Notes under the pieces: model-generated
What the model was told of the DNA's origin: nothing
The model's input: only the letters and a program-made list of their open reading frames with translations
Databases searched by the model: none
Made by a program: the position numbers and the translations under genes
NCBI RefSeq assembly: GCF_005696695.1
Contig: NZ_CP040006.1
Span: 2,220,001-2,252,000 of the forward strand
DNA: 32,000 nucleotides
Reading direction: 5' to 3'
Source: Schaalia odontolytica
GTDB taxonomy: Bacteria; Actinomycetota; Actinomycetes; Actinomycetales; Actinomycetaceae
Shown here: positions 29,288 through 32,000 of the stretch, piece after piece
How the letters are laid out: each line of letters opens with the position of its first letter
How positions within the stretch are numbered: position 1 is the first letter of the stretch

Positions 29288-29980
29288 TTACGAGCCTGAC
29301 TGGGCACCGCTCTGGTAGCCAGTCTGCGAATCGGACTGGGTGCCGGATTGTGGGGTGACGTGGGCACCCGGGGTGAGCGTGGGGACCGGGTGCAGGTCGG
29401 GGTCCGTGTTGTCGCTGACCGTCACGTGCACACCCGGGAACGCCTCCTCCACCGACGGCAAAACGAACTGACCGGGATCATTCAGAGCGTGAGAGGTCGG
29501 CAGGCACGCGGAGTAGGATCTCATCTCGATACCGGTCTCGGTGTACTTAAACTGAGCGGAGTTACCGTCATTGTCCGTGAAGTAGATCTTCCGGCTCCCA
29601 TCTTCACGGAAGTCGTCTTGCATCCACAGACCAGACGTACCGTCACGCCGGTGAGTGTTGACGACCTCCCCAAGCCGATCAAAGGAGATCTGCGGAGCCA
29701 CCGTGCTGTAGCCAACGACCCGATAGCCTTGCGTGTTGTCGATCCCGCACGCCTGCACGTAGGGCAGGCCCATCACCGTCAGCTCGCCGCCCGTCTCGGC
29801 GGCCACCTGCCCGGCCATGCGCGACAGCTCCGGCAGCTGACGGCTCATGTACTCCTCGAAGCTCACACGCTGAGGGAAGGGAACGAGCTTACCTTGACGC
29901 GGCATCACCGCATCCCACCCATACAAACCGGCCACTACCACGGCCGCCGCGAGACCAACACGCGCTGGCGTCCACTTCAT
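29288..29980 (-). CDS. Signal-anchored extracytoplasmic protein, paralogue of the adjacent lipoprotein, with a Gln/Ser/Gly/Thr-rich tail
   Basis: The product starts MKWTPARVGLAAAVVVAGLYGW. Segments shared with 29986-30657 are ETGGELTVMGLPYVQACG vs EAGGTLGVGEKPYVWSCG and DGNSAQFKYTETGIEMRSYSACLP vs DGNVLSFYHLEDDTISVFFDSGCLP. GGGGAG lies upstream of ATG 29980. Confidence 0.75.
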   Translation of the reverse strand: MKWTPARVGLAAAVVVAGLYGWDAVMPRQGKLVPFPQRVSFEEYMSRQLPELSRMAGQVAAETGGELTVMGLPYVQACGIDNTQGYRVVGYSTVAPQISFDRLGEVVNTHRRDGTSGLWMQDDFREDGSRKIYFTDNDGNSAQFKYTETGIEMRSYSACLPTSHALNDPGQFVLPSVEEAFPGVHVTVSDNTDPDLHPVPTLTPGAHVTPQSGTQSDSQTGYQSGAQSGS

Positions 29981-29985
29981 GGCTC

Positions 29986-30657
29986 TCAACTCCCCGACTT
30001 CTTATCAGAGCCCGTCGTCACCTGACGGAAAATCAACGGGTTCCTCTGCTTATTCGCGTCGAACGCGTCAACTATCGTTACCCGAGAGAACAACTCCTCG
30101 GGCTCAGGAAAACGAAGACGCTGAGACATTCCGTCAGGCTGCGCCGCGGGCAGGCACCCTGAATCAAAGAAGACAGAGATCGTATCGTCCTCCAAGTGGT
30201 AGAAACTGAGCACATTACCATCTTGGTCACCAACATCGACGCTACGCTTCTTTTCCTTGTCCCGAGGAACAGGATCAGTCGAATAGCTGAACCCGTAGCG
30301 CTGAGCACCGTCTGCGACAACCCGGGTCAGATCCTCATAATCCATCAACGGGATGTAATAGCGGGCCAAACGAATCTCAAACCCATTCGACGTGGGACCG
30401 CAGCTCCATACGTAAGGCTTCTCACCGACTCCGAGTGTTCCTCCCGCTTCCACCGCGACATCCTCAACGATGCTCATGTACCGAGGCACGGTCTCGTCGA
30501 TGAATACCTCCATCGTCTGACGCTCAGAGTTAGACTCACCCTCGTCACCGCGCCCAAAATACTGACTCGCATCATTGGAAAGCCCCGGCACGCACGCCGC
30601 CAGAAGCAACGAGGCACAGCCGGCGCCCAGCAGCGTGACCAGCCGTTTCCGGCTCAT
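29986..30657 (-). CDS. Lipoprotein, paralogue of 29288-29980; possible immunity or partner of the upstream hydrolase
   Basis: The lipobox is ASLLLAAC. ATG 30657 lies in an ATGA overlap with the hydrolase stop (30654-30657). Two Cys are conserved with the paralogue. Confidence 0.8.
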   Translation of the reverse strand: MSRKRLVTLLGAGCASLLLAACVPGLSNDASQYFGRGDEGESNSERQTMEVFIDETVPRYMSIVEDVAVEAGGTLGVGEKPYVWSCGPTSNGFEIRLARYYIPLMDYEDLTRVVADGAQRYGFSYSTDPVPRDKEKKRSVDVGDQDGNVLSFYHLEDDTISVFFDSGCLPAAQPDGMSQRLRFPEPEELFSRVTIVDAFDANKQRNPLIFRQVTTGSDKKSGS

Positions 30658-32000
30658 TGCCTCTCCTTCTTACCCACGATGACCTTACCGATATCTTCGA
30701 GGGCATAGTTATGTTTGCCTTCCTTGTCCGGTTTATGGAAATACGAGGAGTGATTCCCATCAGGCCTGTGCCATATGCCGTGTTTGTATCCTTCTCCCCC
30801 ACTCGTATCTCCCGAGAGGTGCCCGATTCCTTCCAGGTGCTCGGGGTTGCGCCCAAAGGTACTGTCAGGCCCAATTCCCCGAACCGGATCAAGGTGTGGG
30901 GTCGCCGAGACCCACGTGTGGTCTGCGTCCACCCCCAACGTCCCGACGGCGCTCACCCCTGCGCCCGGGGAACCCGTGTACACAAGCTCATCGACGACGC
31001 CCTCTCCGATGTCGCGCATCGCAATGCCCGCAGTCGTCGACCCGTATGAATGCGGAATGATGCTCTGGTGCACGTCCAGTCCCCGCTCTGAGCGCCACGA
31101 GTGGATTCCCGTCACGAAGCCGTTCAGCTTCTCAGCTCCAGCCTCGGCTTTGTCGATCGACGTGACAGACGTGTCCCACGTCTTCACTATGTCCGGCGGA
31201 GCTTCGTAGCCTATCCAGGCGATGGTAGCCACGCTCCCATCGGTAGGAGCTCCATATGTGTCCGCCGCCCACTTGAGATTCTTCGCGAACTCGACATTGA
31301 GCCTGCCATTATCGCGAAAATTCGAGCCCATCCCCGGCACGAACGTCGCCACGTGCTGCGCGTTGTCGACGTCACCGATGGCGATTGCGGCACGGACGTT
31401 TTCACCAAGATTCCCCGGTTCAAGGACAAGGAGCGTCGCCCCAGCATTGCTACCGAGCTGCTCCGAAATAGCGTTCAGATCCGCCAAGCGATTCTGGAGA
31501 TTCTCCTGCTTGTCGAGAAGGTCCGATGAGACCTCCTGTCCATTTTCACGCATACGGTCTATCTCTTGGTTCAGTTCGTCAAGTTCGTTCTGGGTCTTTT
31601 CAATCAGACCCGTTCCCGGAATACGATTTCCCGCGGCATCTACGTGTCCGTTCAACGCAAGCTCATTTGCCCTCGCCCGCGAGGCCATGTCGATTCCATT
31701 GAGATTGCCGTACTTTTCGGGATCCTTGTTGATGAGCGCCTCGCGCTCGGACTCCGACAGGAGTGCCCACCACACGGAGACCTCCTCGGGACTCCACGCG
31801 GGGTCGGCGTCGTCGGCCAAGCCCGCAGACGCCGAGTGGCGCCCCTCAGCTAGGACATACCGACCGTCGGCCAACGCCTGATAACGTGGCCCCACCGTTT
31901 CCTCGGCTTCCGTCGCAATTCTCACTGCATCGTCAATACAATCGCGCAGCTCGTCGAACTTACGCGGCACCGGCTCAAACCTCTTGTCAAGCGCATCTGG
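30654..32000 (-). CDS. DUF1023-type alpha/beta hydrolase (Abhydrolase_8-like) with a coiled-coil N-region; 5' end beyond the window
   Basis: The frame stays open to nt 32000, and the GTG at 31970 in the track is only the first in-window start. The nucleophile motif is IPHSYGSTTAG (Ser at nt 31047-31049), preceded by HVATFVPGMGS. A coiled-coil segment reads NELDELNQEIDRMRENGQEVSSDLLDKQENLQNRLADLN. Confidence 0.8.
   Translation of the reverse strand, partial: PDALDKRFEPVPRKFDELRDCIDDAVRIATEAEETVGPRYQALADGRYVLAEGRHSASAGLADDADPAWSPEEVSVWWALLSESEREALINKDPEKYGNLNGIDMASRARANELALNGHVDAAGNRIPGTGLIEKTQNELDELNQEIDRMRENGQEVSSDLLDKQENLQNRLADLNAISEQLGSNAGATLLVLEPGNLGENVRAAIAIGDVDNAQHVATFVPGMGSNFRDNGRLNVEFAKNLKWAADTYGAPTDGSVATIAWIGYEAPPDIVKTWDTSVTSIDKAEAGAEKLNGFVTGIHSWRSERGLDVHQSIIPHSYGSTTAGIAMRDIGEGVVDELVYTGSPGAGVSAVGTLGVDADHTWVSATPHLDPVRGIGPDSTFGRNPEHLEGIGHLSGDTSGGEGYKHGIWHRPDGNHSSYFHKPDKEGKHNYALEDIGKVIVGKKERQ

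Follow-up and report, generated by a model that had tools for sequence, protein, structure and literature searches.

Organization of the cassette next to purB

We analysed a 32,000-nucleotide (nt) window of the Schaalia odontolytica chromosome (NZ_CP040006.1, positions 2,220,001 to 2,252,000), in which three minus-strand genes, overlapping or almost abutting, fill positions 29288-32000. The first encodes a hydrolase of the PF06259 family (formerly DUF1023), and the two others encode membrane-tethered paralogues of the DUF4853 family (PF16145). We examine here this cassette as a candidate effector-immunity system. Its features, with the convergent purB gene as context, are the following.

30654..32000, minus strand: hydrolase, C-terminal 448 codons and stop; PF06259 match, candidate Esx effector
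31289..31793, minus strand: conserved pre-catalytic module (residues 183-225), then variable coiled-coil linker (about residues 240-300), from the conservation profile
30879..31400, minus strand: PF06259 (Abhydrolase_8) catalytic core, residues 314-487, Pfam domain limits
29986..30657, minus strand: DUF4853 lipoprotein, 223 amino acids (aa), PF16145 match and lipobox, candidate cognate immunity protein
29288..29980, minus strand: second DUF4853 paralogue, 230 aa, PF16145 match, N-terminal membrane anchor and QSG-rich tail, candidate partner in the immunity pair
29198..29287, no strand: 90-nt spacer separating the cassette stop from the convergent purB stop, from the coordinates
27740..29197, plus strand: purB (adenylosuccinate lyase, PF00206 and PF08328), conserved right-hand boundary of the variable cassette, context only

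The start of the lipoprotein gene overlaps the hydrolase stop in an ATGA (30657-30654, minus strand). At the next junction, a TTGA lies at 29989-29986 (minus strand) and an ATG at 29980, 5 nt past the lipoprotein stop; this ATG is the likeliest start of the second paralogue, since it has a GGGGAG Shine-Dalgarno sequence upstream and is the start used in public gene calls. A simple scan of the 29198..29287 spacer found no intrinsic terminator and no sigma-70 site.

An initial annotation, which read the cassette as a possible effector with tandem immunity genes, had already described a minus-strand operon convergent on purB, both start-stop overlaps with the alternative ATG, an HSYGS nucleophile motif at 31038-31052 (minus strand) and two cysteine blocks shared by the downstream proteins (PYVWSCG/PYVQACG and DSGCLP/YSACLP), and all of these are present where it placed them. 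It had also called the hydrolase DUF1023-type and the downstream genes paralogues, and both assignments are confirmed by Pfam. Indeed, the hydrolase fragment matches PF06259 over residues 201-374 (E 9e-31, 107 bits against a cut-off of 20.5), and PF16145 is matched by the first (E 1e-47, 161.6 bits) and second (E 5e-44, 150.1 bits) downstream proteins, well above the cut-off of 34.8. These two proteins are 27% identical (E 7e-11) and have two conserved Cys in common.

The GC content of the cassette is 0.55-0.62, against 0.66-0.70 for purB and its left flank (500-nt windows), and its GC at third codon positions (GC3) is 0.65-0.77, against 0.83-0.90 in the neighbours. The lower GC content that had been announced thus holds relative to the neighbouring genes, but it is less extreme than the 47-57% obtained from hand counts of single lines. 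Along the whole window, GC swings strongly, from 0.55 to 0.75.

The complete hydrolase and its upstream partner

As had been proposed, the 5′ end of the hydrolase gene lies past the window, at about window-equivalent position 32339. We recovered the full gene from assembly GCA_001462375.1 (locus L001, 8319-10004), where it encodes a 561-aa protein identical to P0057; the exact lipoprotein sequence is present in the same assembly and on many human oral metagenome contigs. The hydrolase N-terminus reads MATWADIQSWELSYVEEAEDLIEAE and is acidic and helical; in a low-confidence AlphaFold2 (AF2) model it forms a long helical hairpin (helices 13-45 and 50-102). No Sec, Tat or lipoprotein signal was detected in the full 561-aa protein, so that the lack of a signal peptide, first noted on its visible part, extends to the whole. 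A search of NCBIfam returned coiled-coil noise only.

The predicted nucleophile of the hydrolase is Ser431, in the HSYGS motif, and Asp484 (30888-30890) and His530 (30750-30752) are the candidates for the remainder of a triad. The three residues, which would constitute the catalytic triad, are unchanged in 14 Schaalia variants and also in 9 sequences including three distant loci; judging from this invariance, the hydrolase variants look enzymatically competent. Ahead of the catalytic core lies the module SPEEVSVWW...GNLNGI...RARAN (residues 183-225), which is common to a Mycolicibacterium plasmid hydrolase.

Hydrolases 91-92% identical to this one are found in records named Cellulomonas flavigena, Xylanimonas cellulosilytica (352_XCEL) and Mycobacteroides abscessus (P0107, P0119 and P0173), and two 352_XCEL contigs (L011 and L019) also hold the syntenic cassette. 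The assemblies bearing these three genus names are probably mislabelled or contaminated.

In the complete locus, the operon order is a 493-aa GHSQGG hydrolase-like protein (membrane-anchored), a 213-aa protein, a 116-aa helical protein, the 561-aa PF06259 hydrolase and the two DUF4853 proteins, with purB convergent. The gene for the 116-aa helical partner lies outside the window (L001 7969-8319) and has its stop overlapping the hydrolase start codon; it was found in every locus extending that far, with a conserved YxxxE motif. A profile search of PDB sequences with the partner protein gave helical noise only. The Esx core cluster is absent from the window and from the 10 kb beyond either end.

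The DUF4853 proteins

The initial annotation described a lipoprotein followed by a signal-anchored paralogue, and this distinction stands: the first DUF4853 protein has a lipobox, LLAAC, with Cys22 at 30592-30594, and the second has an N-terminal hydrophobic anchor without lipobox. The AF2 model of the lipoprotein has a mean predicted local distance difference test (pLDDT) score of 77, above 90 across most of the core, and shows an alpha/beta domain with two helices and eight to nine strands. When it was compared with the PDB by Foldseek, the model matched 4MJG (E 2e-10, probability 1.00, TM-score 0.60 on the query and 0.74 on the target), and besides this entry nothing was found below E 0.01. 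By sequence, the second DUF4853 protein is a close homologue of 4MJG (ACTODO_00621, E 5e-80), an uncharacterised structural-genomics entry from Actinomyces odontolyticus ATCC 17982 released in 2013. Since 4MJG is the sole fold match, DUF4853 does not appear to be a family of solute-binding proteins, nor to have an immunity fold that is already known.

Very few proteins belong to DUF4853: a hidden Markov model (HMM) search of 1.84 billion representative proteins returned 42 at E <=1e-3, many of them fragmentary, and our literature search found no paper mentioning the family. Several large multi-repeat proteins (P0195, P0199 and others) were rejected as spurious members, as only a short D-x-D-G-N hairpin was matched repeatedly. 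A low-complexity Q-S-G-rich tail, e.g. TPQSGTQSDSQTGYQSGAQSGS, ends 16 of the 18 aligned DUF4853 proteins, in both subfamilies described below; it lies at 29288-29360 in the window and is also found in the distant members P0193 and P0196.

Variation among Schaalia and Pauljensenia loci

The comparative set comprised 20 distinct locus versions, annotated with a custom DUF4853 HMM and BLAST references. The survey used a 14-sequence DUF4853 alignment and two search patterns, one in the signal-peptide/lipobox region (LLLAAC...) and one in an internal stretch; this skewed it toward the Schaalia/Pauljensenia clade. In each of the 20 Schaalia/Pauljensenia loci reaching both, the hydrolase gene lies next to DUF4853 genes, and the site of the cassette, between the genes for the 493- and 213-aa proteins and purB, is constant in every locus long enough to show it.

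The flanks of this site are conserved: identity across loci is 90-99% for purB and, relative to the L001 copy, 85-97% for the 493-aa gene. For the 116-aa partner, identity is 89-98% in most loci and falls to 57-84% in four (L010, L013, L015 and L025). The catalytic domain is 56-98% identical across loci (median 63%) and splits into at least five types, which are 56-73% identical to one another, and the first-position lipoproteins have a median identity of 47%. Catalytic-domain identity correlates with the identity of the adjacent lipoprotein (Spearman r 0.28, permutation p ~0.01) and of the adjacent anchored paralogue (Spearman r 0.33, permutation p ~0.006), but not with that of purB or of the 493-aa gene (r = -0.06 each). 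This co-variation with DUF4853 but not with the flanks suggests that the cargo evolves as a unit, decoupled from the chromosome.

The DUF4853 genes number two, three, four, five or six per locus. Two deep subfamilies, lipoprotein-type and anchor-type, alternate along every array; the former contains at least five classes and the latter two more. In the window, a hydrolase of type I is followed by a lipoprotein of type D, which is seen only beside type I. Half of the extra lipoprotein-type copies (7 of 14) are 38-44% identical to the first copy of their own strain and 89-93% identical to first copies lying beside other hydrolase types. These foreign-matching copies are distributed one to each of the seven extra-copy loci, L009 aside; at L014, for instance, the hydrolase is of type IV, yet one copy is 89% identical to the cognate of the type I hydrolase of the window. 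Of the remaining extra copies, some are gene fragments, and the others resemble first-position copies only distantly (58-61%; 76% in L009).

Moreover, three loci have intact DUF4853 genes beside a damaged hydrolase gene: in L013 it is fragmented, in L017 it has an internal deletion and in L009 it is split. Another locus, L012, carries two complete tandem cassettes whose hydrolase types differ. At L020 (10653-12769), an E-class DUF4853 gene is apparently interrupted by an insertion of about 1.3 kb, which leaves pieces of 97 aa and 177 aa.

Distant loci and plasmid homologues

Four distant full-length DUF4853 members are all lipoproteins with the same two Cys. Genomic context was examined for three of these members, all but P0196 (P0193 through the 92%-identical P0218), and for another family member, P0288. 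In S. vaccimaxillae (L027), a partner gene, a 132-aa open reading frame (ORF) and a gene for a 418-aa PF06259 hydrolase precede DUF4853; L031 has a 103-aa gene, a 578-aa PF06259 hydrolase and DUF4853; and L032 has a 103-aa gene, a 574-aa PF06259 hydrolase and three DUF4853 genes. The contexts of these loci are unrelated to the purB site and to each other, and the trio of partner, hydrolase and DUF4853 recurs in them. Their small upstream proteins are homologous to the 116-aa partner, with [YF]xxxE near the end of helix 2. In L032, the genes immediately preceding the cassette encode an S8 peptidase and a protein that resembles AesB in its helical N-terminus, its disordered, Gly-rich region and its acidic C-terminus.

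Two of these loci show further particularities. At L027 (6374-8004), the 132-aa ORF resembles a split-off N-terminal hairpin and overlaps the 418-aa hydrolase gene by 25 nt; this separate hairpin ORF may have arisen by a natural split or by a frameshift, or may reflect a sequencing error. At L032 (11701-16658, minus strand), six tandem paralogues of about 264 aa lie beside the three DUF4853 genes, with 66% identity between the two that were compared, and the one sequence read (264a) has several hydrophobic stretches suggesting membrane spans. These tandem genes may be another immunity-like array, directed at a different toxin.

PF06259 homologues on Mycolicibacterium and Streptomyces plasmids are organized as a small gene, a long hydrolase gene and a gene for a small downstream protein (L033 3806-6472, L034 3985-6378 and L035 3652-6514). 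Two of the three downstream proteins are LLAGC lipoproteins, and all three have two Cys spaced as in DUF4853. Alignment of the DUF4853 profile with these three plasmid downstream proteins by hhalign was not significant (probability 0.3-4%), with the Cys in register in two of the three, and neither was that of the partner profile with the Mycolicibacterium EspC-family protein.

One such case is plasmid pTY66_01 of Mycolicibacterium sp. TY66. Its upstream 99-aa gene matches PF10824 (34.7 bits against 23.5) and is annotated 'type VII secretion target' by the Prokaryotic Genome Annotation Pipeline (PGAP), the N-terminus of its hydrolase matches PF06013 WXG100 (31 bits against a cut-off of 27.3), and the overlapping downstream gene encodes an LLAGC lipoprotein with two Cys. 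This hydrolase aligns with residues 183-536 of the Schaalia hydrolase (BLASTP E 4e-26), including the SPEEV..WW...GNLNGI module. As the alignment includes the pre-catalytic module, the two proteins appear to share an architecture in which the Schaalia hairpin sits where the plasmid protein has its bona fide WXG100 domain.

Other candidate modules in the window

On the other side of purB (25503-27511, minus strand) lies a further candidate module. Its first gene (27191-27511), for a 106-aa protein containing the WxG motif QWTGVGG, extends over the start of the gene for a 564-aa protein (25503-27197) that has a helical N-terminal half and a GHSQGG lipase-like C-domain. This C-domain is paralogous to the 493-aa protein encoded upstream of the cassette (33% identity, E 9e-17). 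Between strains, the N-terminal half of the 564-aa protein is 54-100% identical and the C-domain 82-100%, and there is no obvious immunity gene after it. We considered whether the 561-aa and 564-aa proteins flanking purB were duplicates and rejected this, as no similarity was detectable between them, nor between their small partners; they are separate modules.

A second kind of candidate Esx substrate module is found at 1-3215 (plus strand): a truncated WXG100-like ORF (frame 2, ending at 466), then a 514-aa protein (493-2037), then a Peptidase_S8 protein (2016-3215). In the 514-aa protein, the N-terminus is helical, a Gly-rich region is disordered and the C-terminus is charged and contains GYVNP, an organization that fits what has been published for AesB of S. 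odontolytica (GYNVP motif). Upstream of the window are another S8 peptidase gene and a complete small gene of 156 aa (L036), and L001 has a further AesB-like C-terminus with S8 (801-2224), some 6 kb ahead of the hydrolase cassette.

The window also carries a Tad-type pilus ATPase gene (T2SSE; 6458-7621, minus strand), accompanied in the syntenic contigs by TadB/C-like and Flp-associated genes, a class A penicillin-binding protein gene (15740-17860, plus strand) and a gene for an Abhydrolase_1 enzyme (13119-14024, plus strand).

Discussion

The association of a PF06259 hydrolase with DUF4853 proteins is preserved in every clade locus reaching both and in three of the four distant loci. The polymorphic payload, its co-varying neighbours, the orphan copies and the retention of DUF4853 after loss of the toxin gene are, as far as sequence comparison goes, the signature of a toxin-immunity island. 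The same pattern is documented for TslA/TilA and for other islands of the type VII (T7SS) and type VI (T6SS) secretion systems (PMC10730906). The reading given in the initial annotation is thus supported by the checks that could be made in silico: the genes are co-conserved, the paralogue copies vary in number from two to six with an orphan-immunity pattern, the hydrolase is hypervariable between conserved flanks and pseudogenised in some strains, which is not the behaviour of a housekeeping esterase, and the only PDB match of the DUF4853 lipoprotein is the uncharacterised 4MJG, not a solute-binding or known structural family. We therefore favour the view that the cassette probably encodes an Esx-exported, strain-polymorphic alpha/beta-hydrolase effector together with DUF4853 extracytoplasmic immunity proteins, arranged in pairs of a lipoprotein and an anchored protein.

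The mechanism that we propose is the following. The window would hold the 3′ part of an Esx effector-immunity cassette of the S. odontolytica group. The N-terminal hairpin of the hydrolase (about residues 1-100) would pair with the 116-aa YxxxE partner and form with it a composite T7SS export signal. Once exported, the PF06259 domain would attack neighbouring cells, in all likelihood related Actinomycetaceae, by cleaving some ester-linked constituent of their envelope. The producer would be protected by the two translationally coupled DUF4853 proteins, tethered on the outer face of the membrane by a lipid anchor and a transmembrane (TM) helix, respectively, which would bind and block the hydrolase, and the extra DUF4853 pairs of other strains could guard against the hydrolase variants of competitors. 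In this scheme we infer the export route, the toxicity, the substrate and the binding.

How would the hydrolase leave the cell? The enzyme is devoid of a signal and its co-evolving partners are predicted outside the membrane, which argues for a non-Sec export, and Esx is the route known in the species. Indeed, a functional Esx system has been demonstrated in S. odontolytica (Wang et al. 2026, PMC13622651), and eight further Esx substrates have been predicted, each encoded beside a small WXG100-like hairpin gene (PMC13622651). In other Actinomycetota, the Eat loci contain Tap genes, genes for toxins with helical N-termini, and a varying number of genes for lipoprotein or TM immunity proteins (Benedict et al. 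2026, PMC13444075). Alpha/beta-hydrolases are the commonest predicted Eat payload in M. abscessus, and lipoprotein or TM immunity proteins go with toxins acting extracellularly (PMC13444075). The direct sequence evidence for T7SS in Schaalia is weak and the indirect evidence stronger; the link, which had been suspected in the initial annotation, is strengthened by the upstream helical partner, by the Mycolicibacterium WXG100/EspC homologue and by these two 2026 papers.

Several observations weigh against this reading. The hydrolase N-terminus has no Pfam match and stays below the thresholds of WXG100, LXG and EspC, and the full-length matches of three of eight partner proteins to PF10824 (T7SS_ESX_EspC) are sub-threshold (best E 0.005). 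The AF2 model of the full hydrolase, built on a shallow alignment of sequences at least 91% identical, is of poor quality, with a pLDDT of 43.5, and was left out of the fold search. A PDB sequence profile search with the catalytic-domain alignment gave zero matches, and at the sequence level no solved or characterised relative was detected. No hydrolase gene lies near the most divergent DUF4853 member (L029). There is no one-to-one correspondence between hydrolase types and lipoprotein classes: class A accompanies types II, IV and V, and type II can be paired with class A or with class E. Finally, the Esx-dependent secretome of strain F0309 comprises four proteins only, all from the Esx cluster (PMC13622651), so that the hydrolase was undetected as secreted under those conditions.

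Could the target be something other than related bacteria? The hydrolase may be an Esx effector acting on Saccharibacteria epibionts or on host molecules, with DUF4853 shielding the producer's own envelope and the polymorphism reflecting an arms race with the epibionts. The AesB-like Esx substrate genes in and near the window, and directly beside the L032 cassette, point in this direction. However, the foreign-matching orphan DUF4853 copies and the retention of DUF4853 after hydrolase loss imply an exposure to the variants of related bacteria, and the available part of PMC13622651 does not name the hydrolase and reports that its one tested non-cluster candidate was without effect on the epibiont. 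We consider this target distinctly unlikely.

The tight linkage, the translational coupling and the co-variation, which we attribute to immunity, are equally expected of an obligate surface receptor. DUF4853 could then be a docking or maturation partner holding the hydrolase on the surface of the producer, for the remodelling of its own envelope or for an external substrate; both paralogues are membrane-tethered, and the fold search recognised no known immunity fold. Nevertheless, up to six divergent copies per hydrolase, copies matching foreign variants and intact DUF4853 genes by dead hydrolase genes would be unexpected of such a partner, and the whole pattern fits TilA and other T7SS immunity islands (PMC10730906). 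This role is, in our opinion, slightly less likely still.

The least probable alternative, a cytoplasmic esterase with a coiled-coil extension, unlinked to secretion and with merely co-operonic lipoproteins, would account for the missing signal peptide, for N-terminal and partner sequences below T7SS family thresholds and for a hydrolase unseen in the published Esx secretome (PMC13622651), but it is at odds with the trio kept in four independent genomic contexts, with a Mycolicibacterium homologue above threshold for WXG100 and EspC, and with a hypervariability, a pseudogenisation and a low GC3 that are atypical of housekeeping enzymes.

A broader form of the effector-immunity reading seems to us rather unlikely as a whole. 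It would make DUF4853 the tip of a wider superfamily of two-Cys immunity lipoproteins directed against WXG100-PF06259 effectors across Actinomycetota, including the Mycolicibacterium and Streptomyces plasmids; in Schaalia, the immunity protein would be an obligate heterodimer of a specificity lipoprotein and a more conserved TM subunit, and/or the hydrolase would be used against Saccharibacteria epibionts.

The effector-immunity reading has several implications. The first experimental demonstration of antibacterial T7SS toxins in Actinomycetota dates from 2026, in mycobacteria, and work on the Esx effectors of Actinomycetaceae has barely begun; the cassette constitutes a candidate toxin-immunity system that is both clean and highly polymorphic, and its carrier is an abundant commensal of the human mouth which also hosts Saccharibacteria. 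A function is thereby proposed for two orphan families, PF06259/DUF1023 and DUF4853; for the latter, of which a crystal structure exists (4MJG), it is the first functional hypothesis. In addition, the natural diversity of the cassette, with at least five hydrolase types and five or more lipoprotein classes, could be used in tests of specificity, kin discrimination and two-subunit immunity.

Comparison with known systems

The kind of system proposed here is known already (Eat, TslA/TilA and Tle/Tli), and the present cassette appears to be undescribed. In the T6SS, the Tle phospholipases are paired with periplasmic or lipoprotein Tli immunity proteins.

A close parallel in organization is that of the Eat loci of Mycobacteriales (TapA1/A2, EatA and EatI; PMC13444075), with which the cassette shares an upstream gene or genes for small helical proteins (Tap in the Eat loci), a protein with a helical N-terminus and a C-terminal enzyme, and a downstream lipoprotein immunity gene, here a candidate; the numbers of Tap and immunity genes vary by Eat locus. 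The components differ, however: EatA is a GH183 arabinanase and EatI an unrelated 16-kDa lipoprotein, whereas the Schaalia locus combines PF06259 with alternating DUF4853 pairs. The Schaalia host is moreover a monoderm member of the Actinomycetaceae without arabinogalactan or mycolate.

With TslA-TilA of Staphylococcus aureus (PMC10730906) the likeness, on the reading proposed here, lies in a T7SS hydrolase toxin acting extracellularly, small helical partners, a strain-polymorphic toxin domain, and an immunity protein that is a membrane-tethered lipoprotein encoded in variable tandem copies. On the other hand, TslA is a phospholipase of the T7SSb of Bacillota, its immunity genes lie upstream, and they belong to DUF576, not to DUF4853. 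The Tox-ABhydrolase polymorphic toxins, as set out in the available part of Zhang et al. 2012 (PMC3482391), likewise associate an alpha/beta-hydrolase toxin with envelope immunity proteins that are often duplicated; they belong to another secretion system and other phyla, and PF06259 is not among the Tox-ABhydrolase-1 to -3 domains named in that part. As for 4MJG, the homologue of the second gene of the window, it carries no functional assignment, having been deposited as a hypothetical protein.

Relative to all these systems, what is new in the Schaalia cassette is the PF06259 payload, DUF4853 as a candidate immunity family, the paired subfamilies of its arrays, and a hypervariable island at a fixed site in oral Actinomycetaceae.

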